Of a stretch of 58,326 nucleotides of DNA, positions 256-58,139 are shown in pieces. Origin of the DNA: a virus (lineage: Duplodnaviria; Caudoviricetes); IMG/VR virus record IMGVR_UViG_3300031509_000052, positions 1 to 58,326 of that record; one strand, 5' to 3'. A model generated the notes under the pieces. The model was not told the DNA's origin and made no database searches. It was given only the letters and a program-made list of their open reading frames with translations. The number at the start of each line of letters is the position of its first letter. The first letter of the stretch is position 1. Position numbers and translations under genes: made by a program.

Positions 256-1260
256 GTGGAGACGGCCGCCCCTCAACCCGCCCCCGCCACCGCGACTCCC
301 CCGTCGTCGCAGCCGCAGCCGCACCCGCACTGTGTCCTCTGTGGGGTCTCCCTCCGCTTTTCGCACAACGCGGCCGGATCATACGGCCTCATCCACGCCC
401 CCTGCGGGCCGTTGTGCGCGCATTGCCTTCGAGGCTTATCCTCCAGGTGCCCGTGCGGCAGGGCGGCCGTCTCCTCCCACTATGGCGTATGCCGCGAGCA
501 CTTCATCCCGTGGGACCTCTACACCGGCGAGCGCCGCCCGCGGCTCACCCGCCACGAGTGGGAGCTCCTCGCGCTCCTCTACGCCGCCTCCGGCCCCCTC
601 ACCCTCCACCCCTCCTCCCACGCCCTTGTCCGCAGGATCAACACCATCCTCCGCCTCAAGCCCGGCGTGGACCCCATCCTCACCCTCATCTCCTCCCGCT
701 TTGTCCTCAACCAGCGCTTTGTCGCCGAGGCCGCCTCGACCTCCGACTTCTTCCTCGACCGCTACCTCACCCACCCGCGGGCGTTCACCTTCGACGGCGA
801 TACCCGCACCATTACCGACCGCCGCGCGGGCTGCTTCACCGGCCCGCCTCCCGCCGCCGAGCCCATCATCCTCCCCCACCAGCTCACCGCGGCCGAGCTC
901 TCCTTCGCGGCCCTCCTCTCCTCCTCGCGCCTCAGCCTCGAGGCCTACCCGCAAGTCCGCGTAGGCGGCTATGTGGCTGATTTCCTCCTCACCGGCCTCT
1001 GCCTCAATAGCGGCCGCCTCTTCCCGCCGGTCATCATCGAGATCGACGGCTCCTCCCACAACTCCTCCTCCTCCCGCGCTTACGACAAACGCCGCACAGC
1101 CAACCTACGGGCCTTGGGCTACGAGGTCATCCGCTTCACCAACGACGAAGTCCTCAACTCCCCCGGCTCTGTCCTCACCGCGCTCCTCATCGTCCGCGGC
1201 TGGGACCCCTCCCGCCGCCCATCCCCGGCACCCGCCGCCGCGCCCTCTCCTTTACACTAA
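256..1260 (+). CDS. DUF559/Vsr-like endonuclease with N-terminal Cys-rich (Zn-binding) region
   Basis: C-terminal QVRVGGYVADF..IIEIDGSSH..YDKRRTANLRALGYEVIRFTNDEV pattern; CxxC pairs at N-terminus; GTG 256 lies 6 nt after TAGACT (possible leaderless start). Confidence 0.75.
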   Translation: METAAPQPAPATATPPSSQPQPHPHCVLCGVSLRFSHNAAGSYGLIHAPCGPLCAHCLRGLSSRCPCGRAAVSSHYGVCREHFIPWDLYTGERRPRLTRHEWELLALLYAASGPLTLHPSSHALVRRINTILRLKPGVDPILTLISSRFVLNQRFVAEAASTSDFFLDRYLTHPRAFTFDGDTRTITDRRAGCFTGPPPAAEPIILPHQLTAAELSFAALLSSSRLSLEAYPQVRVGGYVADFLLTGLCLNSGRLFPPVIIEIDGSSHNSSSSRAYDKRRTANLRALGYEVIRFTNDEVLNSPGSVLTALLIVRGWDPSRRPSPAPAAAPSPLH

Positions 1261-1264
1261 TGCT

Positions 1265-2158
1265 ATGCCTCCGTCGTCCTCATCCTCATCCTTCTCCTCA
1301 TCCTTTCCCCCCAACTCTCCCTTGTCCTCATCCTCATCCTCCTCCTCTCCCTCCTCTTCCCCTACCCTTGATCTCCTCCTCTCCCAGTTCGCAGAAAACC
1401 TCACCGGCCTCAAGGGGGACGACCGCCGCGCCTACGAGGACCTCGAATTCTACTCCCGGTACGTCATCGGCTGGGGCAACCCCGAGTACCGCGAAAACTC
1501 CCGCTTCCTCAAGCGCATCTACGAGGCCCTCCAGTACAGCCCGGACAACCAGTTCCTCATCCTCGGCCCGCGCGGCTCGGCCAAGTCCTCCGCGGTCACC
1601 ATCACCTACACCACGTGGATGATCGGCCGCAACCCGTCCATCCGCATTCTCCTCGCCTTCGCCTCGATGGAGGCGCAGGGCCGCGCGTTCGCCCGCCAGA
1701 TCGACCAGATCCTCACCGCCAACGAGCGCTATATCCGCATCTTCGGCCGCCTCAAGCCCGACCGCCCCGAGAAATGGGACGCCACGGAGAAGATCGTCGT
1801 CCGCCCAGAGCCGCCGGGCGGCCTGAAGGACCCCACGATCAGCATTGTCGGCGCGGGCTCCCACGTGCCAAGCCGCCGCGCGGATATCGTCATAGGCGAT
1901 GACCTCGTCACGCAGGAAAACGCCTACAGCCCCGCCCTCCGCGCCCAGCTCTCCGCGTTCGTCAAGCAATCCCTCCTCCCCATCCTCGTCCCCGGCGGCC
2001 GCGCCATTTTCGTGGGCTCCCGCTGGGACCCCCGTGACCTCTACGCCGAGCTCGCTGATGACTGGGGCCTCACGTTCCCTCCCCCGGTCCCTGTTGACAC
2101 CGCCAAACTCGCCGCTCTTCTCGATAAAGAAAAAGAAAACGAAGGAAGCACACCCTGA
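1265..2158 (+). CDS. terL: Terminase large subunit, N-terminal ATPase part
   Basis: Walker A GPRGSAKS, Walker B DIVIGDD, coupling motif GSRW; ATG 1265 lies 6 nt after TACACT; poly-Ser N-terminus. Confidence 0.85.
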   Translation: MPPSSSSSSFSSSFPPNSPLSSSSSSSSPSSSPTLDLLLSQFAENLTGLKGDDRRAYEDLEFYSRYVIGWGNPEYRENSRFLKRIYEALQYSPDNQFLILGPRGSAKSSAVTITYTTWMIGRNPSIRILLAFASMEAQGRAFARQIDQILTANERYIRIFGRLKPDRPEKWDATEKIVVRPEPPGGLKDPTISIVGAGSHVPSRRADIVIGDDLVTQENAYSPALRAQLSAFVKQSLLPILVPGGRAIFVGSRWDPRDLYAELADDWGLTFPPPVPVDTAKLAALLDKEKENEGSTP

Positions 2159-3057
2159 TGGCAGTCCTCATCTACGAACGCGCCATCCACGTCGACGAGG
2201 AAACCGGCGAACTCCGCTCCTACTGGCCTGAGTACTGGCCGCTCGAGCGGCTCGCCGAGCGCTGGCGCATCCTCGGCTCCGGGGCTTTCGCCGCTTCTTA
2301 CCAGAACGACCCCACCGCACTTCAAGGCAACGCCCTCGAGCGCGACTGGCTGACCTTCTACCTCCCGGACGAACTCGAAGCCGCCCGCGAGGCCGCCGGT
2401 GTAGAACGCGGGCAGATCATCGCCGGCGTGGACCCGGCCCGCGGCGGCACAGGCCGCCATGCGGACTACTTCGCCGCAGTCCTCGGCGAACTCATCGACA
2501 ACACCCTCTTCCTCATCGACAACTTCAACCGCCGCCTCCCCATCGAGCACCAGGCCCAGTTCCTCGAAGACTGGCTCACCGCCCGCGGCGGCATCCTCTA
2601 CGGCGTGATCGAAGACACCTCGGCCCGCGGCTATGTCTGGAACGACCTCCAGAACGTCAACGGCGGCGCCGGCTCCCGCTACAACTGGATCATCGAAAAG
2701 GTCCAAGGCCGCGGCGCGGTGGGCTCGAAAGAGATGCGCTTTCTGGCCATGGCACCGCGCTTCAAGTCCGGGCAGGTCCGCATTCCCGGCCGCCGCCTCA
2801 ACTCCGGTCAGCTCGATCCTGCACCCGCATGGGAGACCTTCGTCCAGCAGTGGTGTGCGTTCCCCGGAGGCCACGACGACCTCCTCGATGCCGCCTACTG
2901 GTGCCAGTACGCCGCCTTCGCCAAGGCCCAGCCGCCCGCCGCCGCGCAGGGCGCTCCGCGGCCGGGCCTCTGCCCGCACAACCGGCCTGAGGCTTCCTGC
3001 TATGATTGCAACTCTGTAAGCGGCCGCCGCATGCGGTTCGGCATCTTCCGCCGCTAA
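2158..3057 (+). CDS. terL: Terminase large subunit, C-terminal RNase H-like nuclease part
   Basis: YWPEYWPLERL, FAASYQNDP, GVDPA..DY, FPGGHDDLLDA motifs; TGATG overlap with the ATPase ORF. Confidence 0.85.
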   Translation: MAVLIYERAIHVDEETGELRSYWPEYWPLERLAERWRILGSGAFAASYQNDPTALQGNALERDWLTFYLPDELEAAREAAGVERGQIIAGVDPARGGTGRHADYFAAVLGELIDNTLFLIDNFNRRLPIEHQAQFLEDWLTARGGILYGVIEDTSARGYVWNDLQNVNGGAGSRYNWIIEKVQGRGAVGSKEMRFLAMAPRFKSGQVRIPGRRLNSGQLDPAPAWETFVQQWCAFPGGHDDLLDAAYWCQYAAFAKAQPPAAAQGAPRPGLCPHNRPEASCYDCNSVSGRRMRFGIFRR

Positions 3058-5661: not shown

Positions 5662-5896
5662 CGTCCTCGTCTGGGGGATCGTCCTCCTCACCTCCTTCCG
5701 GGTCTTCTTCGCCCTCGGCCGCTACAACCCGCTCCTCCAGTTCTACGCCTTTCTCATTACCCTCTTCTTTGCCTTCTCCTTCTTCAACGCCATCGCGGCC
5801 TACACCAACTCCACGGTCGACTACCAGCTAATCGACCTTGTACTATCGACAACGGTCGCGATTCTTGTTATTCATCTCCTGTGGAGGGTCAAATGA
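5603..5896 (+). CDS. Three-TM membrane protein
   Basis: Three hydrophobic stretches; ggagg SD. Confidence 0.6.
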   Translation: MMPLPPATRDVLVDALALFNVLVWGIVLLTSFRVFFALGRYNPLLQFYAFLITLFFAFSFFNAIAAYTNSTVDYQLIDLVLSTTVAILVIHLLWRVK

Positions 5897-36896: not shown

Positions 36897-38187
36897 CCTT
36901 CTTCCAGACCTCACCCAGCGAGCCGCCGGGGAACCACGAAAAGTCCCCGCGCGGCTCGTATGCGTTCTGGAGGTTCAGCCGCCAGCGGTGGGTCACGCCG
37001 TGCTCCTCGTGGATACCGAAGATCGTTTGGCCGGCGGGGACGGGTTTGAAGCCGGCGGAGAGGGTGTACTCGTCCGCGCCCTTGAGGCAGGGCGAGGCGA
37101 TGACCTCACCGCTTACCCTGTCTATGATCATCTCGTTGTGGAAGTGACCGAGGACGACGTGGTCTATGCCGAGGTCGCGGTCCTGCAGGACCTCGGTGAG
37201 CGAGCTTACAAAGCGGTTGATCCCGTACCACGGGATGGAGGCGAACCCGCGGATCTGGTGGCCGTGGAAGCCGAGAATGCGCTGGCCGCGGACTTCGGTG
37301 ATGAAGAAAAACGACCGCGGTATGGCGAAATCTACGCCATCGGATGAGTCGAAGAACGTGGAGACGATCTGCGGGACGACGATGTCCCAGTTGATGTGGG
37401 AGTCTTTGGCGGTCGGCTTGCGGGTCATGCGGCCGTGATTGCCCGGGGCCCAGGCGGTGCGGACTACGGCGAACCGCTGCCGCATGCGGGCGATGAACTG
37501 GACAAGCACATACGCCAGCCCGTAGACCGTCTCCATGAGATCGGTGGCCTGGGTGACGATCAGCTCGTCGTGGATCGCGCCGAGCATGCCGTTCACGAGA
37601 TCGCCGAGGCCCAAGATGACGAGTTCATCGAACTCGTAGCCGGTGAGGTGGTCGAACGCGATCTCCTCAATCTTGTCCGCGAGTAACTCCATACGGGCGA
37701 GGAAGACATCGATGTCGTACCGGTTGACCCCGTGCATCTGCTCGGCGTCGACGGTCTCGCCGACGTGGAGGTCGGAAAGGAGGAGCACGAGGCTTTCGCG
37801 GGTTCTTACCCGCTTCGGGACGCGCGAGGACTGCTTGATCTTCGGGACCGGCATCGACTGCCGATAGTCGCGCATGAGCTGTGCGATCGTCTGGTCCAGC
37901 GACTGCCGCTTTGTGAGTTCCTCGTATTTCCGCTTCCAGATCCGCACTTCACGCTTGAGGGCTTCAACTTCGAGGTCGCGGCTGACCTCAGCACTGATGT
38001 CTTGCGGCTCCTGAGGGGGTTTCTGGGCCCGCCGCCTGATGCCGCGCGTCCAGTACGCCGACTTCACCGTGGATGGGTTGAGGGTAAAGCCTTCTTCAGC
38101 GGCCTTGCGGACAACCGCTTCGATGCCTTCGTTGACGTACAGCTCACGCCATGCGTCCCAGCGATCCGGCGGTACGGCTTTTCCCAT
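36877..38187 (-). CDS. Calcineurin-like metallophosphoesterase with N-terminal coiled coil
   Basis: SDLHVGE, LGDLVNG, PGNHGR, FHGH, GHFH. Confidence 0.85.
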   Translation of the reverse strand: MGKAVPPDRWDAWRELYVNEGIEAVVRKAAEEGFTLNPSTVKSAYWTRGIRRRAQKPPQEPQDISAEVSRDLEVEALKREVRIWKRKYEELTKRQSLDQTIAQLMRDYRQSMPVPKIKQSSRVPKRVRTRESLVLLLSDLHVGETVDAEQMHGVNRYDIDVFLARMELLADKIEEIAFDHLTGYEFDELVILGLGDLVNGMLGAIHDELIVTQATDLMETVYGLAYVLVQFIARMRQRFAVVRTAWAPGNHGRMTRKPTAKDSHINWDIVVPQIVSTFFDSSDGVDFAIPRSFFFITEVRGQRILGFHGHQIRGFASIPWYGINRFVSSLTEVLQDRDLGIDHVVLGHFHNEMIIDRVSGEVIASPCLKGADEYTLSAGFKPVPAGQTIFGIHEEHGVTHRWRLNLQNAYEPRGDFSWFPGGSLGEVWKKVSRRYT

Positions 38188-38228
38188 ACTGCTTACAGGG
38201 TAAGCATAACTGCGAAAAATTCACAATC

Positions 38229-38257
38229 TTGCCCGGGCCGGCGTTGTATTGTATGTT
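38229..38257 (+). promoter_or_regulatory. Promoter for a leaderless mRNA
   Basis: TTGCCC-17-TATGTT; ATG 38264 is 6 nt downstream with no SD. Confidence 0.55.
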
Positions 38258-38263
38258 GGCAAC

Positions 38264-38680
38264 ATGAGCACGGGAAGCTGGAAGATCTCGTACGTGTTCT
38301 GGGCGTTCGGCGGCCCGGCGGACAACGTGGCTATCGGGTTCGTCATCTATGAACGGCGCGGTGGGCGGTATGCGTGGCGGCTCATAGACCCGCGGGAGAA
38401 GCTGCCCCACACCCACCCACAGCTTGCCGAGTGGGTACAGTGCATCGCGGAGAACAGGATCATGGCGGCCCTGCAGGAAGGCTGGGGTGATGAGGAGTTC
38501 CGCGAGCACAGCGGCCGGCGTCAGGGGGATGGGGACGTGTGGCTGTCGTGGAGCGAGACGTCCGTGGTGTTCGTCCCCGAGGGCCAGCCGCTGGAGGAGG
38601 TTGCCGACAGCATGGCCGCGGCGATGCTTTCAGCCAGGGATATCACGCGACTAACCAAAGGAGGTGAAGGGCAGGAGTGA
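38264..38680 (+). CDS. Hypothetical protein
   Basis: ORF after promoter. Confidence 0.55.
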   Translation: MSTGSWKISYVFWAFGGPADNVAIGFVIYERRGGRYAWRLIDPREKLPHTHPQLAEWVQCIAENRIMAALQEGWGDEEFREHSGRRQGDGDVWLSWSETSVVFVPEGQPLEEVADSMAAAMLSARDITRLTKGGEGQE

Positions 38681-39123
38681 AGACGTACGCGCCGAAGGGT
38701 ATCAGGCTCAGCTCGCAGCCGCCGCTCTTGAAGTACTGGGCGGGGCTGGCAGTCAACGGCGAGGAGATCCGCGGGGACGGCTACCAGCGGGCAGTGATCC
38801 TCTTCTACTCAGACAAGCAGCAAGACGCGCTGGTGAACTGGTTCCCGTGCACGTTCGGCATACCGGTCGACACCCGCGGGTGGGAAGGTATCAACTGCCT
38901 GAACATCTACGCGACGAAGGAGGCTGCCGAGCCCACCGGGTATCTCAGGATCCGCGGGCCGCGGCCGCGGAGTTTCCGCCCGTACACCATCCCCATGTTC
39001 GCGGTGAAGACGGGGCTGCCGATCCCGAGCGAGCGGTGGTGGGAGAAGAGAAAGAAACAAAAGGGAGGGGAGGAGCATGCTGCTGGAGAAAGCGGCGGGG
39101 CGGCTGAAACCGCAGAGATCTAG
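38677..39123 (+). CDS. Hypothetical protein
   Basis: GTGA-coupled ORF. Confidence 0.55.
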   Translation: MKTYAPKGIRLSSQPPLLKYWAGLAVNGEEIRGDGYQRAVILFYSDKQQDALVNWFPCTFGIPVDTRGWEGINCLNIYATKEAAEPTGYLRIRGPRPRSFRPYTIPMFAVKTGLPIPSERWWEKRKKQKGGEEHAAGESGGAAETAEI

Positions 39124-39280
39124 GAAGTCCACGGGGGTGAAAGGATCCGCGCCTAACCTTTCACCTTGGGGCTTTGGGTGGAAACAACCTTGCATCCGCT
39201 GCGGCGCGGAGATGCCGGGCGTCAGCGGCCTGAAGACGGCTATCTGCGAAGTCTGCGGCTGGAAGGACGACTGCTGCTAG
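39077..39280 (+). CDS. Small Zn-ribbon protein
   Basis: CIRCG...CEVCG; gaggag SD. Confidence 0.55.
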   Translation: MLLEKAAGRLKPQRSRKSTGVKGSAPNLSPWGFGWKQPCIRCGAEMPGVSGLKTAICEVCGWKDDCC

Positions 39281-39358
39281 AACCAAGAAGGCCGCCCTTT
39301 CAACAGGCGGCCTTCTTGGGTCCGGAGGTGAGGAGGCTCACGCCAAACCAGCAAGCCC
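39280..39358 (-). ncRNA. Candidate ~80-nt small RNA with anti-Shine-Dalgarno sequence
   Basis: Consensus promoter directly upstream, hairpin directly downstream, no credible ORF; contains CCUCCUCACCUCC. Confidence 0.5.
39283..39319. terminator. Bidirectional terminator-like hairpin
   Basis: ccaagaaggccgcc-9 nt-ggcggccttcttgg between convergent units. Confidence 0.7.
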
Positions 39359-39364
39359 AGAATA

Positions 39365-39393
39365 AGTGTATAGCACGTCTGCAGCGCTGTCAA
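39365..39393 (-). promoter_or_regulatory. Near-consensus sigma70 promoter
   Basis: TTGACA-17 nt-TACACT on - strand. Confidence 0.75.
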
Positions 39394-39399
39394 TTCAGG

Positions 39400-39741
39400 T
39401 CAGGCGTCAGACCAGTGGTTTTCTTCCCAGAGGCGGAACGTCCCGGGGATGTCGGCCAATTCCACGTCGAGGGGCTCGATGGAATCAGTCTGCTCAATGA
39501 ACAGCGGCTCGCCGGTACTGTCAACGAAGATCAGGCCGGTGATCGCGACCGGTTTGCCGAAGTGCTTCAGGACATCGTCGGGCGATGCCGCCAGCCCGGT
39601 AACGTCTTCGCCGGTGGAGAAGAGCACCGCAGTGTACTTGGCGATGCCGGGCGGCTGGAGGCGGACTGCGGTGATGATCCCGTTTACAGTCATCTCCTCG
39701 AAGCCGCCGCGGCCGTAGTCATGTGTGGTGATCGTCGTCAT
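39400..39741 (-). CDS. Hypothetical protein
   Basis: ggagg SD before ATG 39741. Confidence 0.55.
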   Translation of the reverse strand: MTTITTHDYGRGGFEEMTVNGIITAVRLQPPGIAKYTAVLFSTGEDVTGLAASPDDVLKHFGKPVAITGLIFVDSTGEPLFIEQTDSIEPLDVELADIPGTFRLWEENHWSDA

Positions 39742-40666
39742 CGTAGAGCCTCCTCCGGAGGTGGGTGAAGGCGTACGCCGCCTGCGCAGGGACAACGGCG
39801 TTGCCGAGGAGCATGAGGCGAATTGGCGGGCTCAGCGCACTATGGTTGACCCAATCGGGAAGCCCATAAGCCACTCCACGAAGAGCGGATTGAGCCGGAG
39901 AGAGCCAGGGCCACTCGCGGATGATATCAGCCCACTCTCCAAAAGCCAGCGGCCCAGGGGGCCATACACGACCTGATTCGGCAGTTGGTCCATGTGCGGC
40001 CGGCTGCGGGTGGTCATGTGGCGCAGCGTGTTCGGCGGTCTCCAGTCCCTCGCCGCGGGTGTAGCCCAGAGCTCCTCCCTTTTCGGCAAGGATGAAAAGC
40101 CGCCGCCTGACATGAGGAGCGCCGACTTCAAGCGCTGAGAATATTCCCTCTGCAACGCGGAAGCCGCGGCTTTCGAGGAACGGTTTAACGACGTCGTAGT
40201 AGCCGAGGTTGAGGTGGTTCGCGACGTTTTCGAAGAAGCACCACCGGGGTTCTGACTCATCGATGATGCGGGCAATGTGGGGCCAGAGGTGGCGCGGGTC
40301 TGACGTCCCGCCGCGGCGGCCGGCGATGCTGAACGGCTGGCAGGGGTAGCCGGCAACGACGCAAGCCACTTTTCCGCGCCACTGGCGAGCGTCGAAGGTG
40401 ACAAGGTCCGTCCATATCGGCGCATCATCCAGTTCACCTTCGGCAATATCCTCGACCAGGACCTCGCAGGCAGCGGCTTCCCTTTCCACGTAGCAGACGA
40501 CGCGAAAAGCTCCGCCCAGTGCCTGGCGGAGCCCGCGTTCGAGTCCTCCGATTCCAGAGCACAGGCTGAGGGCGGTATGTAGTACCACGTCATGGCGCGC
40601 AGCTCCAGCCGCCTCCGCCTCCCCAGCGGCCGCGGCGTTCGCAGACGTATCGTGCAACTCGTGCAT
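39719..40666 (-). CDS. DNA (cytosine-5) methyltransferase, alpha polypeptide
   Basis: SLCSGIGG (I), GYPCQPFS (IV), ENV (VI), HVRRRLFI (VIII), LLGNAVVP (X); motif IX absent. Confidence 0.9.
   Translation of the reverse strand: MHELHDTSANAAAAGEAEAAGAARHDVVLHTALSLCSGIGGLERGLRQALGGAFRVVCYVEREAAACEVLVEDIAEGELDDAPIWTDLVTFDARQWRGKVACVVAGYPCQPFSIAGRRGGTSDPRHLWPHIARIIDESEPRWCFFENVANHLNLGYYDVVKPFLESRGFRVAEGIFSALEVGAPHVRRRLFILAEKGGALGYTRGEGLETAEHAAPHDHPQPAAHGPTAESGRVWPPGPLAFGEWADIIREWPWLSPAQSALRGVAYGLPDWVNHSALSPPIRLMLLGNAVVPAQAAYAFTHLRRRLYDDDDHHT
39832..40593 (-). CDS. Nested alternative-frame ORF: putative MTase beta polypeptide
   Basis: WATPAARDW and RLNPLFVEWLMGFP (motif IX-like) inside the MTase gene, other frame, same strand; ggag SD. 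Confidence 0.65.
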   Translation of the reverse strand: MTWYYIPPSACALESEDSNAGSARHWAELFASSATWKGKPLPARSWSRILPKVNWMMRRYGRTLSPSTLASGAEKWLASLPATPASRSASPAAAAGRQTRATSGPTLPASSMSQNPGGASSKTSRTTSTSATTTSLNRSSKAAASALQREYSQRLKSALLMSGGGFSSLPKREELWATPAARDWRPPNTLRHMTTRSRPHMDQLPNQVVYGPLGRWLLESGLISSASGPGSLRLNPLFVEWLMGFPIGSTIVR

Positions 40667-40808
40667 TGACCAACGGATCATACCACGCGGACAGGTCCTC
40701 GTGGATCCCCTCTTGCACCGCCCCACCCCATATGCTAGAACTACGCAGACAACACTAACCCGTGCAACAAAAAGAGCTGCTCTCATACCACTGTCCTATG
40801 GAGTAAAG

Positions 40809-48918: not shown

Positions 48919-49077
48919 CTAGTTCCGGCCGCGCCGGACAGGAACGGGAACAAGCTCCCGTTCCTCATCCGGCACAACCGCGGGCTCCGGTGCTGGAGCA
49001 GGCGCGGGAGTGATCACCGGAGCCTCGACGGGCTTCGGGACCACGACGACGCGCAGCGGCCTGCCGATATCGCCCAT
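48919..49077 (-). CDS. 52-aa Pro-rich peptide (not in ORF track)
   Basis: MGDIGRPLRVVVVPKPVEAPVITPAPAPAPEP..; ggaggtg SD; fills the gap exactly. Confidence 0.65.
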   Translation of the reverse strand: MGDIGRPLRVVVVPKPVEAPVITPAPAPAPEPAVVPDEERELVPVPVRRGRN

Positions 49078-51507: not shown

Positions 51508-51529
51508 GGGTCTCACCTCCTTGCGCCAG

Positions 51530-51603
51530 TTGCGCACACCGTACGAGGAGTAGATTGTACTCCATGTACGGTGTGCGCAAGCATGCCAATGAGGCATGCT
51601 TGC
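51530..51603. repeat. Two overlapping inverted repeats
   Basis: ttgcgcacaccgtac/gtacggtgtgcgcaa (15 bp, inner ggagta/tactcc) and gcaagcatgcc/ggcatgcttgc (11 bp). Confidence 0.8.
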
Positions 51604-51624
51604 AACAACGGAGGGTGGTGTACT

Positions 51625-52578
51625 TTACAGGAAGTGCACGACGAGGTTGCGGATGTTGCTGAGCAGCATAGGGGTTACCTCTGTGCCGCCGATCGAATCC
51701 ACAACCGTGCAGCGGAGCCCCAAGCGGGGCGCGGCGATGATCGTGCCGAGTTTGCGCGGGTCGCCGGTGTACCGCGGCCCCGGCCATCTGCTCGACCATT
51801 GCGAGTAGTACGTGATCCACTCGCCGGGGTGCAGAGGATCGGGAGTGAAGACGCGGATCACCGGGCTGTTGTCGACAGCGTACGCTGCGATCTGTACGAC
51901 GTACTCGAGCGGCGCGCCCACTCCGACGGCATGGTGGATCACGCCGGTCTCCGAATTGCGCACCGTGAGGATGTCGCCAGTGACCAGCGGGTACTCCATG
52001 CCGCCGCGGCGGATGGCGAGGAAGTCTGCGGTTCGTTCCGCTTCGCCGTAGGCGAGACCGCACATGAGCGGCCTATCGCCGTCGAGCACCACGTCGAAGA
52101 TGCGCTTGTAGCGCACATCGTCGAGGATCGACGGCGACTCCGGAAGCGACTCAGCGAACGGGATCGGGAGTTCGAGCCGCACGATTTCCAGCTTGTAGAC
52201 TGGACCATCGTCGGTCTCGAACTCGTCGGCCCACATGATCGCGCGGCCCCCCTTGTACGGCACGATGTGCTCGGTGTCCGCAGCGAGCGGCTCCGTCCGC
52301 CAGTAGGTGCCCGGCCGGGAAAGATCAACCTCTTCAGCAGAGATGACCCACGGCTGCGCCTCTACAACGTGCGGCCTCGGCCCCTGCACGTACAGGTAGG
52401 AGTCTCGGCTAGGGCTGCCGCCATTGTACACGTCGGCATTGCCGAACCACCCCGGCGCCACGTTTGCGGCGTAGTCATCGGCTTCGTCCCATGCGGACTC
52501 GTCGATGTCGACGCCCTGATCCTTCAGCACGACCAATGCGTACCGGCGTGCTGCTTCCCGGTTCTGAAAAACCGGCAT
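51625..52578 (-). CDS. Hypothetical protein
   Basis: aaggaggtga SD directly after hammerhead 1. Confidence 0.65.
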   Translation of the reverse strand: MPVFQNREAARRYALVVLKDQGVDIDESAWDEADDYAANVAPGWFGNADVYNGGSPSRDSYLYVQGPRPHVVEAQPWVISAEEVDLSRPGTYWRTEPLAADTEHIVPYKGGRAIMWADEFETDDGPVYKLEIVRLELPIPFAESLPESPSILDDVRYKRIFDVVLDGDRPLMCGLAYGEAERTADFLAIRRGGMEYPLVTGDILTVRNSETGVIHHAVGVGAPLEYVVQIAAYAVDNSPVIRVFTPDPLHPGEWITYYSQWSSRWPGPRYTGDPRKLGTIIAAPRLGLRCTVVDSIGGTEVTPMLLSNIRNLVVHFL

Positions 52579-52595
52579 CTTGGTACTCACCTCCT

Positions 52596-52664
52596 TGGCC
52601 TGCCATCTTCAGTGCCGGTAGGCCAGCTCCGGCAGACGGGAGCAATCGCTGCTCCCGTTTCGGC
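52596..52664 (-). ncRNA. Hammerhead ribozyme type II (copy 1)
   Basis: GCC GAAA CGGGAGCA-loop-UGCUCCCG UC^ UGCCGG-AGCUGGCCUA-CCGGCA CUGAAGA U GGC AGGCCA; predicted cut after 52635. Confidence 0.9.
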
Positions 52665-52892
52665 TTACTTATCGGCGAGTTTGTTATCGAAGAGTTCGCC
52701 TGCGGCGATCTCACAGGCTGCTTCAAAGAGGAAGTCTTCTTCTTCGCTGAGGTCACACTCAATCAGCTCCCAGAGCTTCTTGAGCAGACGTTCAGCTTCG
52801 GCCTTTTCCTCTTCGGTCAGCGCTTCCCAGGCGGCGTAGGCTTCGGCCCGCGCCGCCTGGTACTCCTGCCACTCGTCTTCGTTCATCATCAC
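52665..52892 (-). CDS. Small acidic protein
   Basis: ~75 aa, 23 D/E vs 7 K/R; aggaggtga SD. Confidence 0.65.
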   Translation of the reverse strand: MMMNEDEWQEYQAARAEAYAAWEALTEEEKAEAERLLKKLWELIECDLSEEEDFLFEAACEIAAGELFDNKLADK

Positions 52893-53287
52893 TACTCTTT
52901 CTCACCTCCTCCTGCGGTTACAGCAGAGAACGCCGGGAGCACCGCGGCTGCGGCTTTTACAAGCTGCGCGTCGCCGAAGAGCACCCACGGTGTGTGTTTG
53001 ACGACGATCAGGCCGCCATAGGCGAAGGCGGGCTCGATCGCGACCGGCGCGAACGGCTCATCGGCGAAGATCGCCGCGAACAGCCGCGTCCAGTCGGGGA
53101 GCGTGTCGGGGCCCTTTACAGTCAGGAACCGCTCGCCGATCGTGATGTGCACAGTGAGGCTGTAGCCAGTCTCATTGACTATCACAGCACCGCGGCGATG
53201 CGCGACTATAACGGGGCTCCCGACCTGCAGCACTTCCGCAGGAGCGGGTGCAGCCGCTTGGGCTGCGGCTGCTACGGGATAAAGCAC
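52892..53287 (-). CDS. Hypothetical protein
   Basis: GTG 53287 after aaggaggtga SD; the longer ORF-track start lies inside the ribozyme. Confidence 0.6.
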   Translation of the reverse strand: MLYPVAAAAQAAAPAPAEVLQVGSPVIVAHRRGAVIVNETGYSLTVHITIGERFLTVKGPDTLPDWTRLFAAIFADEPFAPVAIEPAFAYGGLIVVKHTPWVLFGDAQLVKAAAAVLPAFSAVTAGGGEKE

Positions 53288-53300
53288 GGTGATCACCTCC

Positions 53301-53372
53301 TTGGCCTGCCTATCATCAGTGCATGGCGGCCAACCCATGCAGACAGGGGTTTCCGCCAACCCCTGTTTCGGC
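53301..53372 (-). ncRNA. Hammerhead ribozyme type II (copy 2)
   Basis: GCC GAAA CAGGGGUU-loop-AACCCCUG UC^ UGCAUGG-GUUGGCCG-CCAUGCA CUGAUGA UA GGC AGGCCAA; predicted cut after 53342. Confidence 0.9.
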
Positions 53373-53403
53373 TGTTCGAGGTTTACTTGGGCTCAGCGCC
53401 TGT

Positions 53404-53736
53404 TTACCCGTGGTAGCAGGCGCTGAGCAGCGTCTGCGGCACATACGTGCCGGTGTCTGCGTTCCAGTGAAGGAACGTGACAGGCCGCGGCTCGATAGAA
53501 ACCGCAGCCTCGAGAATCGCGAGTGCGGCCGGCGTAAAGCCGGACACCACTACAGCGAACGGGCCCTCGCGAGGGATGATCCTCCTCGCCATGCGCGTCA
53601 GCTCCGCTGGATTCAGCGGTAGCTCATTCGGGAAAATTGGCGGCCCCACTACAACGGGGCCGATGCCATCGATCGTGATGGTCTGCCCCGGCCGCACGTG
53701 ACGCGCGGTCATCGTGAAAATGGGATGATTTTTCAC
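53404..53736 (-). CDS. Hypothetical protein (possible CARF/SAVED-like fold)
   Basis: VVVSGFTPAALAIL..VTFLHWNADTGTYVPQ; aaggaggtga SD. Confidence 0.55.
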   Translation of the reverse strand: MKNHPIFTMTARHVRPGQTITIDGIGPVVVGPPIFPNELPLNPAELTRMARRIIPREGPFAVVVSGFTPAALAILEAAVSIEPRPVTFLHWNADTGTYVPQTLLSACYHG

Positions 53737-53760
53737 TTCGTCTGTCTCACCTCCTTGTTC

Positions 53761-53830
53761 GGCCTGCCAATCATCAGTGCGCGGAGGCCATCCCGCGCAG
53801 ACAGGGGCTCCGCCCGCCCCTGTTTCGGCA
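53761..53830 (-). ncRNA. Hammerhead ribozyme type II (copy 3)
   Basis: UGCC GAAA CAGGGGC-loop-GCCCCUG UC^ UGCGCGG-GAUGGCCU-CCGCGCA CUGAUGA UU GGCA GGCC; predicted cut after 53800. Confidence 0.9.
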
Positions 53831-53831
53831 G

Positions 53832-54095
53832 TTAGCTTTCGAGAATCGGGAGGAAGAGATCCTCCTTTTCGCCGATGAATACGCGCGCGAGCCGCGCCTC
53901 AGGAGAAAGACCCAGAATGTGCCGAGCAAGCCGTTCGGCCTGCTGGCCCGGGTCTTCCTCGTAACGCCGCCCCTCTACAATGCGCGCGTGGCACACTCCG
54001 ATCGGAGAGTGCGCCGTAACGGCGAGCCGCGGACCTTTGCAGTCCGTGGCTGGAAGATATTTGACCCGTGCGTAGTCGGTATCGTAGTACGGCAC
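53832..54095 (-). CDS. Hypothetical phage protein
   Basis: VKYLPATDCKGPRL; aaaggag SD. Confidence 0.6.
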   Translation of the reverse strand: MPYYDTDYARVKYLPATDCKGPRLAVTAHSPIGVCHARIVEGRRYEEDPGQQAERLARHILGLSPEARLARVFIGEKEDLFLPILES

Positions 54096-54150
54096 CCCTA
54101 AACTCCTTTGATTGTGTGTTGAGCGCTTTACAGTGTCGATCGTAGTTTAT

Positions 54151-54228
54151 GGCGCGGACCCTGCGAGGCGAACCACAGGTTCAGATGTACGGCATGACAC
54201 GCCGCGATGTGCCGCAGGGACCCGCGCC
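54151..54228 (-). ncRNA. Candidate structured RNA (three-way junction)
   Basis: GGCGCGG..CCCUGCG / CGCAGGG..CCGCGCC closing stem enclosing two hairpins. Confidence 0.4.
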
Positions 54229-54235
54229 TTTACAA

Positions 54236-54445
54236 TCACGCGCCGGGTACCTTCCAGTGCCCCGCGCGTCGACCGACAACGCTGGCTTCGACGTACCGCC
54301 GCGCTCCGCAGCGGCACTCTTCGACGTGCACCACGTTGCCGTGGTACATGTCACCGTAGCCCCGTGCGGAGCAATCGATCGCGGCCACGCAGTAGTGCCA
54401 AAGCTGCGTCATCGTCGAAGCGGCACGGTGCCTCTTGTGCAGCAC
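54236..54445 (-). CDS. Small His/Cys-rich protein
   Basis: aaggaggtga SD after hammerhead 4; HxH and CRCG. Confidence 0.55.
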   Translation of the reverse strand: MLHKRHRAASTMTQLWHYCVAAIDCSARGYGDMYHGNVVHVEECRCGARRYVEASVVGRRAGHWKVPGA

Positions 54446-54464
54446 CTTTCACTCACCTCCTTTC

Positions 54465-54538
54465 GGCCTGCCATCATTCAGCACCGGTAGGCCACCTCCG
54501 GTGGACCGCGGGCTGCGTTTACAGCACGCGGTTTCGGC
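54465..54538 (-). ncRNA. Hammerhead ribozyme type II (copy 4, core variant CUGAAUGA)
   Basis: GCC GAAA CCGCG..CGCGG UC^ CACCGG-AGGUGGCCUA-CCGGUG CUGAAUGA U GGC AGGCC; predicted cut after 54504. Confidence 0.8.
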
Positions 54539-55086
54539 TATGCGGGGAGCGTGACGCCGTAGGTTTTCGACACGCTGTTGTAGACGCGAGACTCGAGGAC
54601 TCGCGCCTTTACAACAGTCGCGTAGTCCATGATCGCGTCAAACTGCCGCGGGGAAAGCGGCAGTTTGTACTTGCGATCCTCCTCCGGTGTTTCCATCCAC
54701 TCCACGATCTGATCGCGGAGTGAGCGGCGGAACGGCGAGCGGAACTCCTTTGTCTTCAGGAGATTGACGATCGCCAGCACCGCGGGCATTCCCGCGCGCT
54801 CCTTTACAAGCATGAGCGCGCGCTGCCATGTCTCCGGCCATTCGGCCGGAACAATTGCCCACAGGTAGCGCCAGTCAATCTCGTTACGGCACCACTCTGC
54901 AGGATCCATCCAGTCCGGCAGCACCACGCGCTTTACAAGAAAGCGCGGCGCTTCGTACTGGGTGAAGTCGTCGGGCCCCTGAATGAACGCTTTCTGTTCT
55001 TCGAGGAGCTCAGCATCCTTCGCGGGATCAAACTCCCGCAGAGGCGCCAGCGTGTCGCTCACCTCGCCGTTCCGTTCGAACAGCAC
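54538..55086 (-). CDS. Hypothetical phage protein
   Basis: 182 aa, bounded by hammerheads 5 and 4. Confidence 0.65.
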   Translation of the reverse strand: MLFERNGEVSDTLAPLREFDPAKDAELLEEQKAFIQGPDDFTQYEAPRFLVKRVVLPDWMDPAEWCRNEIDWRYLWAIVPAEWPETWQRALMLVKERAGMPAVLAIVNLLKTKEFRSPFRRSLRDQIVEWMETPEEDRKYKLPLSPRQFDAIMDYATVVKARVLESRVYNSVSKTYGVTLPA

Positions 55087-55125
55087 CTCAACTGTTTTCG
55101 TAGATCACCTCCTGATAGAAATTGC

Positions 55126-55971: not shown

Positions 55972-56062
55972 GCGTATCGCCGCTGATACCCGCACGCATG
56001 CGACAATCGCCGCGTGCGTGCGGGTATCAGCGGCGATACGCGCACCTGGTGCGCGTATCGCC
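55972..56062. repeat. Two overlapping long inverted repeats
   Basis: ~31-bp stem 55972-56041 with one mismatch; 15-bp perfect IR ggcgatacgcgcacc-t-ggtgcgcgtatcgcc at 56032-56062. Confidence 0.85.
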
Positions 56063-56471: not shown

Positions 56472-56494
56472 GAATGCGATTCGGTCTCGAATTG

Positions 56495-56537
56495 GACTCA
56501 GTCTAAATCTGGAATGAATCCAGATTTAGACTGAGTC
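56495..56537. repeat. Perfect 19-bp AT-rich inverted repeat
   Basis: gactcagtctaaatctgga-atgaa-tccagatttagactgagtc. Confidence 0.9.
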
Positions 56538-56573
56538 TAGGTCTAGGCTTCGCGTCCTGGTGGCGCGCGGGTG

Positions 56574-57014
<441 letters not shown>

Positions 57015-57109
57015 AGGCGAACCTCCAAGTTGGGATCGTCGGGAGTGTCGCATGCGGCCGCCCGCGGCCGCCACGGCATGGCGTCATATGGTAAATGACT
57101 CCGGCCCCT

Positions 57110-57460
57110 CCTGGCGCTTCGGCGGCCGCGCCTGCGCCTTCGGCGGCCGCGCCTTCGGCCGCCTATGGCCATTCCCTGCGCCTACGGGCCGCTTGCGGCC
57201 GCTACGGGCCGCCTACGGGCCCGTACGCCTGCGCTACGCCATACGGGCCGCATACGCCCGCCTGCGGGCGCTTGCGGCCGCTATGGGCCGCTACGGGCCG
57301 CTACGGCCGCCTATGCGCCATACGGCCGCGCTTGCGGGCGCTTGCGGCCGCTTGCGCCCGCCTAGGGCTTCCTAGGGCTTCCTAGGGCTTCCTACGGCCG
57401 CTTGCGCGTCCTACGGCCGCTGGCGTACTGTGGGCACTGCGGCGGCCGCTACGGCCGTTA
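57110..57460. repeat. Degenerate short tandem repeat tract
   Basis: Units such as ctacg(g)gccg, cttgcg(g)gc(c)g, cttcggcggccgcgc and cctagggctt x3. Confidence 0.8.
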
Positions 57461-57482
57461 GCTCTACTGCTGGAGGGTCACG

Positions 57483-58100
57483 ATGACCATCGACTACGAG
57501 CGCGCCCGTGCCGAAGCGGAAGCGCGCATCAATGCATGGTTGAAAATTCTAGCCATGCAAGAACGGGCGCTTTCGAACGCCCGCATCGCTGCGGCCGTTC
57601 GGGCGCGGGCGCGGGCGGCCGCGCCTGCCGTCGCGTTCGCGAAAGCGGCCGCGAAGGAAGTTACGGCCGCCTACGATGCGCTGGCGCTGGCGCGCTTCGA
57701 AGCGCTGCGCCTGACGCAGTCGGCCGCGGGCGCCCGCCGGGCCGCGTGGCGCAAGCTTCGCGTGGCGCTGCGCTTGCGCTGCGCTTGCCATGCGGCCGCG
57801 GCCGTCGCGGCCGTCGATGCGGCCGTCGCAGCGGGCGCGGCCGCGCGCGAAGCGCGGGCCCGGGCGCAATCGGCAGCGGCCGCCTACGCCCGCGCTTGTG
57901 CCGAAAGCGAACGTTACCGGTACGAAGCTTCGGTGATCCTGTACGGGGGATGGTCAGTCGCGCCCGATGACCCGGGCGCGCCCGCGGCCGATGCGGCCGT
58001 CAGCACTGACGCCTTGATCGCGGCCGTGTACTCCGCGGCCGCGCCCGCCATCCGCGCCATGCGGCCGCGCCCGCGGGCGCAGTCGGGCGCGCAGGCGTAG
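57483..58100 (+). CDS. Ala/Arg-rich hypothetical protein
   Basis: ggagg SD and ATG; low complexity. Confidence 0.45.
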   Translation: MTIDYERARAEAEARINAWLKILAMQERALSNARIAAAVRARARAAAPAVAFAKAAAKEVTAAYDALALARFEALRLTQSAAGARRAAWRKLRVALRLRCACHAAAAVAAVDAAVAAGAAAREARARAQSAAAAYARACAESERYRYEASVILYGGWSVAPDDPGAPAADAAVSTDALIAAVYSAAAPAIRAMRPRPRAQSGAQA

Positions 58101-58139
58101 GCGGCCGCGCCCGCCCGCATAGCACCAGGACACATTACG

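Follow-up and report, generated by a model that had tools for sequence, protein, structure and literature searches.

A candidate small RNA with an anti-Shine-Dalgarno tract, predicted between converging genes of a hot-spring phage

A promoter followed closely by a hairpin, lying between two converging units of a tailed phage, forms a reasonable but unproven candidate small RNA (sRNA) that would share its 3' end with the mRNA of the gene upstream. On the minus strand, the promoter is followed by ~35 nt, then by a pyrimidine tract (CCUCCUCACCUCC, 39336-39324) complementary to Shine-Dalgarno (SD) sequences, and then by the hairpin (39319-39283). Since this promoter is a good one with no other target ahead of it, we consider the chances that a short RNA is made to be somewhat better than even. 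A designed anti-SD function is less likely than production of the RNA. We tentatively favor a small RNA embedded in a 3' untranslated region (UTR), with an anti-SD linker that would be able to mask strong SDs, while regarding this reading as falling short of an even chance.

The window, meaning the whole stretch of DNA that was analyzed, is a 58,326-bp IMG/VR record that is rated ~71% complete and has 64% G+C. The stretch 37800-40800 is present in full in one hot-spring metagenome run, its possible source, and parts of relatives are found in other hot-spring runs. Among 21 listed runs, no RNA data set contained the stretch. PHROG matches identify a tailed phage, with terminase, portal, capsid/protease and tape measure genes on the plus strand at 0.25-21.9 kb. 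Genes for replication and nucleotide metabolism are mostly on the minus strand. None of the 54 proteins scanned matched an integrase, repressor or antiterminator family at E ≤ 1e-5, and a search of an isolate-phage collection found no close isolate. The ThyX protein of the phage (34775-35530) shares 64-71% identity with ThyX from Tepidiforma/Tepidiformaceae and from related Dehalococcoidia metagenome-assembled genomes, so the host is likely a thermophilic member of the Chloroflexota (Tepidiformaceae lineage), as judged from this one gene. In the literature on Tepidiforma and phage, we found no paper on such a phage. The large terminase extends over two adjacent frames, one (971-2158) corresponding to positions 266-465 of phrog_38 and the other (2158-3057) to positions 474-713; the split (971-3057) may represent a frameshift, the remnant of an intein or intron, or two real genes. 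Near the right end of the record, at 56950-58110, hairpins are dense and short GC-rich repeats of tandem-like form (GCGGGC..., GGCCGC...) occur, perhaps as the mark of an origin region or a genome end.

Immediately upstream of the promoter, on the same strand, is a gene for a protein of 113 amino acids (39400..39741) without a family assignment, the mRNA of which would share the hairpin as its 3' end. Besides the window's own copy, this protein has four homologues at 79-88% identity. It was not found in a search of 401 Dehalococcoidia genomes, and its AlphaFold model (pLDDT 54) is too low in confidence for a fold search. The gene is overlapped by that of a C5 cytosine methyltransferase (39719-40786, minus strand; Pfam E 7e-27), and the SD of the 113-aa gene falls within the methyltransferase reading frame. 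Converging from the other side is a plus-strand cassette of three genes (38264-39280), with GC3 values of 0.76-0.85 in the plus frames. Its last gene (39077..39280) encodes a protein with a CxxC...CxxC zinc-ribbon-like motif and only a weak Pfam match, and the TAG stop of this gene abuts the hairpin. A promoter-like site of the cassette, TTGCCC-17-TATGTT, was read by eye in the region 38229-38680, and the cassette mRNA is probably leaderless because transcription is expected to start at the ATG (38264). The first gene of the cassette is missing from one relative, where 45 other letters link 38260 to 38677 within a contig, so this gene looks like an accessory insert. The exonuclease gene beyond the cassette (38187-36877) has a candidate promoter of its own (TTCCCG-17-TACAAT, read by eye) and thus would not depend on read-through from 39393.

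The earlier note, made from the letters of the window, had described a minus-strand TTGACA-17-TACACT pointing into a stretch with no credible open reading frame, and both parts of this description held. The -35 hexamer TTGACA (39388..39393) starts 7 nt past the TGA of the upstream gene (39402-39400), leaving 6 nt between them, and a 17-nt spacer separates it from the -10 hexamer TACACT (39365..39370). With a score of 10/12, the promoter (39393-39365) is among only four sites in the whole window that reach this value. The window has four sites of the form TTGACA-N16-18-TANNNT, where 0.14 would be expected, and 0 of 100 shuffles gave four or more. The other three (29983 and 32421 on the minus strand, 36220 on the plus strand) each lie directly 5' of an SD and ATG, which argues that the phage uses such promoters and that the one at 39393 is probably functional. 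By its sequence, it probably works as a host-type (sigma-70-like) promoter.

From the geometry of the promoter and the position of the hairpin, we infer a non-coding transcript of ~80 nt (39277..39358, minus strand) that would start at the G at 39358 and end after UUCU. The minus strand reads, in order, the TGA, 6 nt, TTGACA, 17 nt, TACACT, GGGCUUGCUGGUUUGGCGUGAGCCUCCUCACCUCCGGAC, the hairpin with arms CCAAGAAGGCCGCCU and GGGCGGCCUUCUUGG around the loop GUUGAAA, and UUCUAG. The predicted RNA contains no more than two frames, one of 25 codons starting with TTG and one of 13 starting with GTG, neither with an SD. Folded as an 85-nt RNA, the sequence reaches -43.3 kcal/mol (z = -3.45), a value equalled by 0 of 200 shuffles. 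In the lowest-energy fold the tract is single-stranded between both hairpins. The open-seed fold (-42.9 kcal/mol) has a 5' hairpin (GGGCUUGC...GUGAGCC, 39334..39358) and leaves the 10-mer 39333-39324 unpaired. A competing GUGAG/CUCAC hairpin, which had been suggested as a gate for the seed, is indeed predicted; combined with GGUUUGG/CCGGACC it gives an alternative fold of -42.6 kcal/mol, within 0.3 of the open form. The predicted probability that UCACCUCC is unpaired is 0.47. As folded, a 5' hairpin, a single-stranded tract and a putative terminator make up the layout of a base-pairing sRNA. Rfam covariance models applied to 38500-40200 returned chance-level best matches only (E ≥ 0.3, far under the cut-offs), and a scan of the whole window gave no gathering-score match at the promoter-hairpin locus.

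The hairpin itself (39279..39323) is GC-rich and has 15 bp (39319-39305 with 39297-39283) where 14 had been noted, plus three outer pairs and a 7-nt loop. Its tail on the minus strand is UUCU, and the plus-strand side lacks a U tract. Judged as an intrinsic terminator, it combines a strong 15-bp stem with a tail of just UUCU, and for this reason a terminator scan makes no call there. Canonical terminators in the phage are at chance level (12, 10 and 13 found versus 11.3, 11.5 and 11.7 expected). The sequence of the hairpin arms is generic, with the arm pattern occurring in at least 118 unrelated metagenome stretches and in 4 viral stretches. These matches were rejected as relatives of the locus, given that BLAST of 38100-40000 against 123 collected loci revealed similarity in the 33-48 nt of the hairpin only. 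Since the hairpin sits between two converging units, it would be needed as their end with or without a small RNA.

The tract CCUCCUCACCUCC (39324..39336, minus strand), in which the anti-SD sequence named in the earlier note was found, reads GGAGGTGAGGAGG on the plus strand. The 16S gene of one Tepidiformaceae genome has GGATCACCTCCTTTCT as its 3' end, of which UCACCUCC is an exact 8-nt copy, bearing out the proposed likeness to the 16S 3' end. The SD GGAGGTGA occurs 13 times in the window against 2.09 expected, with 13 or more in 0 of 100 shuffles. Seven copies on the minus strand (51513-55112) precede the early starts whose SDs had been said to be complementary to the RNA (51507, 52578, 52892, 53287, 53736, 54445 and 55086), and all seven matches were recovered; the copy at 38660 precedes a plus-strand gene. 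The spacing between SD and start is 5-11 nt at six of the seven early sites, and the seventh SD (55105) lies 18 nt from a GTG. Five of the seven read GGAGGTGAG, which would allow 9 bp with the RNA versus 8 bp with the ribosome; being copies of a single module, these sites do not count as independent.

Four of these early SDs are associated with ribozymes. Type II hammerheads (RF02276; cut-off 37 bits, scores 41-49) are found on the minus strand at 52594-52665, 53300-53373, 53758-53830 and 54462-54539, between successive small early genes, and each ends either at the first G of GGAGGTGA or no more than 10 nt before it. A weaker, fifth look-alike precedes 55086. The arrangement suggests that an early polycistronic RNA would be cut by the hammerheads into single-gene mRNAs, and hammerhead arrays flanking single genes in phage transcripts are already known (PMC3088659). 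Because the hammerhead modules are repeated, GGAGGTGA(G) recurs with the same flanks, and because four of the seven early SDs lie in such modules, the SD matches of the earlier note amount to fewer independent observations than their count. In these modules a pairing between loop UUGGCC and tail GGCCAA adjoins the SD. The right end of the early region also contains very long perfect or near-perfect palindromes (51532-51581, 55981-56030, 56491-56540 and 56569-56666; -31 to -41 kcal/mol per 50 nt), one of them directly 5' of the SD at 51520.

We then looked for sequences perfectly complementary to any part of the RNA's first 42 nt, leaving out its own antisense. The segment CUCACCUCC pairs over 9 nt with five early SDs (GGAGGUGAG) and over 10 nt with the SD of the 113-aa gene. 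At the ribosome-binding sites of the phage, pairing stops at the SD and extends to 8-10 nt in all. The longest complement is a 13-mer on the minus strand at 5683-5695, which lies antisense to a structural gene and is presumably left untranscribed. The matching 13-mer of the candidate RNA, CCTCCTCACCTCC, recurs on the plus strand in that structural gene, most likely as a coincidence of Leu-Leu-Thr-Ser coding.

Target strength was compared by a cofold measure that includes the cost of opening each of the two RNAs, applied to 69 translation-initiation regions and 3879 60-nt windows. The mean gain was -9.6 kcal/mol for initiation regions versus -8.2 kcal/mol for the windows (Mann-Whitney p = 0.002). 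The best initiation regions were those at 49077, 47018, 39077, 53736, 51507, 52578 and 38677 (-15 to -22 kcal/mol), and the top-scoring sites overall are antisense to structural genes. At the SD of the 113-aa gene the gain was -9.8 to -12.3 kcal/mol, a value equalled by 442 of the 3879 random windows. RNAduplex on 50-nt windows was dropped, as the GC-rich background averaged -28 kcal/mol and gave no discrimination. In target prediction on phage leaders, which the earlier note had proposed as a check, initiation regions slightly beat random windows, and pairing never passes the SD. The complementarity is real but generic, and any RNA bearing CCUCC would show the same.

Contigs of four hot-spring runs from four studies (X2, X3, X4 and X6) were compared with 38100-40000 at a likeness of at least 80%. 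All four runs cover the hairpin together with the genes on either side, and three (X2, X3 and X6) also keep the tract as far as 39330-39333, CCUCACCUCC. In two contigs of X2 and one of X6, the match stops at 39330-39333 and resumes at 39451-39464. The gap holds 107 and an unknown number of unlike letters in X2 and 126 in X6, the replacement being known by length alone. An X4 contig breaks at 39302 and matches again from 39420, the interval holding 91 letters. For X3, a contig ending at 39333 is continued by two variants. The first is ~91% alike across the promoter. The second lacks 3 nt at 39334, whereby one CCU of the tract is lost and CCUCACCUCC kept, and also lacks 17 nt in total from the stop codon, the -35 and the spacer. 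Among the differences listed, both variants are changed once at 39362, downstream of the -10 but before the predicted start.

Across the set, five contigs of three runs break at 39330-39333 and the fourth run breaks at 39302, and in contigs of three runs the half with the promoter and the 5' hairpin is replaced by 91-126 unlike letters. As compared here, the hairpin is common to all four runs, and the promoter and the 5' hairpin are variable. Two readings fit equally: a constrained sRNA seed with a drifting 5' part, or a mosaic junction after an SD. With relatives this close (roughly 85-95% alike in the flanks), the conservation of a 10-nt stretch weighs little.

Other collections were searched as well. 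The isolate-phage collection held no DNA or protein relative of the locus, with the exonuclease reaching at most 27% identity. In IMG/VR and JGI contigs, single proteins, protein alignment and a 22-nt exact pattern yielded no usable relative; the sole match was 21 residues long and was rejected. A protein search with a shadow frame across the intergenic region found nothing. Five Tepidiformaceae genomes gave only chance matches to the locus (best E 0.02), two of which were inspected and proved to be coding CTCCTCACCTCC.

Under the reading that we favor, the promoter 7 nt past the stop of the 113-aa gene would fire into that gene's own 3' hairpin. The product would probably be an RNA of ~80 nt (39358 to ~39277, minus strand) with a 3' end common with the methyltransferase/113-aa mRNA. 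It would consist of a weak 5' hairpin, a pyrimidine tract of 10-13 nt (CCUCACCUCC) open for about half of the time, and a strong terminal hairpin. If active, the RNA would most likely pair with strong SDs (GGAGGUGA(G)) and compete with 30S binding, with repression as the presumed outcome. Candidate targets would be the RNA's own upstream gene, the early genes linked to hammerheads (51.5-54.5 kb), and those two genes of the plus cassette that have an SD. A bolder version holds that a mimic of the 16S tail, made by a virulent Chloroflexota phage, shuts off early translation once the RNA accumulates, with CUCACCUCC out-pairing the ribosome (9 versus 8 bp) at GGAGGUGAG directly past the hammerheads; the RNA would then be a counterpart of the T4 protein RegB. 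We regard this version as very improbable.

The anti-SD look of the tract may instead be the mirror image of an SD. According to this explanation, which we think rather unlikely although it deserves serious weight, GGAGGTGAGGAGG is an orphan plus-strand SD, a by-product of mosaicism at a module junction past the hairpin of the plus cassette. The hairpin would be a shared end, and the promoter would be real or near-real with a product that has no sequence-specific role. The plus-strand 8-mer is identical to working SDs of the phage (38660 and the seven early sites), and the breaks in similarity or assembly at 39330-39333 (five contigs, three runs) and at 39302 (the fourth) resemble a mosaic boundary. 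One relative also lacks the first gene of the plus cassette (38260 joined to 38677), and the sequence of the hairpin is generic. Repeats of 10 nt (TCCGGAGGTG) flank the segment with the 113-aa gene, but repeats at such density are expected by chance in 2 kb, and five such pairs were found. Other observations count against this explanation. No start codon follows the plus-strand SD in any frame; although this leaves the site without a present use there, it has been kept. Moreover, a consensus -35 with correct spacing, placed 7 nt past a stop codon, is unlikely by chance.

Three further explanations concern what the unit does where it stands. The short RNA, or its transcription, might pair or collide with plus transcripts that pass the hairpin, with the effect of less antisense read-through into the 113-aa and methyltransferase genes. 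This fits the convergent layout, in which the stop of the plus cassette abuts the hairpin, the minus-strand promoter lies 110 nt further and the plus-strand side has no U tract. It also has a parallel in lambda OOP, a short RNA with its own promoter that opposes cII (PMC5869508). Unlike OOP, the predicted RNA overlaps the plus unit by the hairpin and at most ~3 nt of coding sequence, and we consider an OOP-like role improbable. Alternatively, the tract could act in cis as part of a 3' UTR, folding back so as to cover the 113-aa gene's SD and lower its translation, in which case the promoter would be secondary. The SD region (39742..39759, minus strand) complements 39321-39342 with 10 perfect nt and ~17 bp with bulges. 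The perfect part lies between GAGCCUCCUC (39339-39330) and GAGGAGGCUC (39755-39746), and in folds of a 500-555-nt mRNA, 39759-39742 pairs with 39321-39342 at a probability of ~0.4-1.0. Precedents are icaR (PMC3868564) and hbs (PMC5737220). However, a perfect 10-nt complement in 2 kb is near chance (three 100% pairs were found), the cofold gain at this site is within background, and the SD is inside the methyltransferase frame, where translating ribosomes would open the pairing between 5' and 3' ends. Such a cis effect seems to us quite improbable. Last, a strong promoter followed by a strong hairpin within ~80 nt could be a regulated promoter-proximal terminator of the lambda PR'-tR' type, where the short RNA is the default and a phage antiterminator permits read-through. 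Yet what lies downstream on the minus strand is the antisense of three plus genes and then the exonuclease with its own candidate promoter, the late/structural genes are on the plus strand, and 0 of the 54 scanned proteins match an antiterminator family at E ≤ 1e-5. We give this possibility hardly any credence.

The 3'-UTR-embedded sRNA that we favor can be placed among known systems. Lambda OOP (PMC5869508) and the c4 RNA of P1/P7 (PMC12197685) are likewise short phage RNAs with their own promoters. OOP converges on a protein gene and c4 masks a ribosome-binding site. Both have long, specific complementarity to one target, whereas the candidate has 8-10 nt of generic SD complementarity. The icaR mRNA of Staphylococcus aureus (PMC3868564) has a 3' UTR with an anti-SD motif that complements the SD of the same mRNA; in the phage, by comparison, the pairing is no better than background and the SD is inside the upstream reading frame.

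Should the RNA be made and act via the anti-SD tract, a Chloroflexota phage would be the source of an sRNA, and the virus would be timing its own gene expression by imitating the sequence with which the ribosome docks on mRNA. If the tract is only an orphan SD by a shared terminator, the locus would illustrate that in SD-rich, high-GC phages the mirror of an SD next to a hairpin mimics an anti-SD sRNA.

Among bacterial RNAs, RsaE/RoxS and 6C are sRNAs of Gram-positive bacteria with C-rich or anti-SD seeds. The candidate resembles them in its own promoter, its bounding by hairpins, its predicted length of ~80 nt and a pyrimidine tract, unpaired in the open fold, that is complementary to SDs. 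It differs in being phage-borne, in having one linear tract rather than several C-rich loops, and in having no Rfam match. DapZ and MicL represent sRNAs that are embedded in a 3' UTR and have their own promoter; they are Hfq-dependent and enterobacterial. The candidate shares with them a promoter at the very end of the upstream gene and a putative terminator common with that gene, although DapZ and MicL are proven transcripts and the unit described here is known from its sequence alone. Finally, T4 RegB is a protein endonuclease through which early mRNAs are shut off via GGAG SD sites. Its likeness to the candidate is functional only: both would reach the same end, the inactivation of early messages via their SDs, with RegB doing so as a protein.
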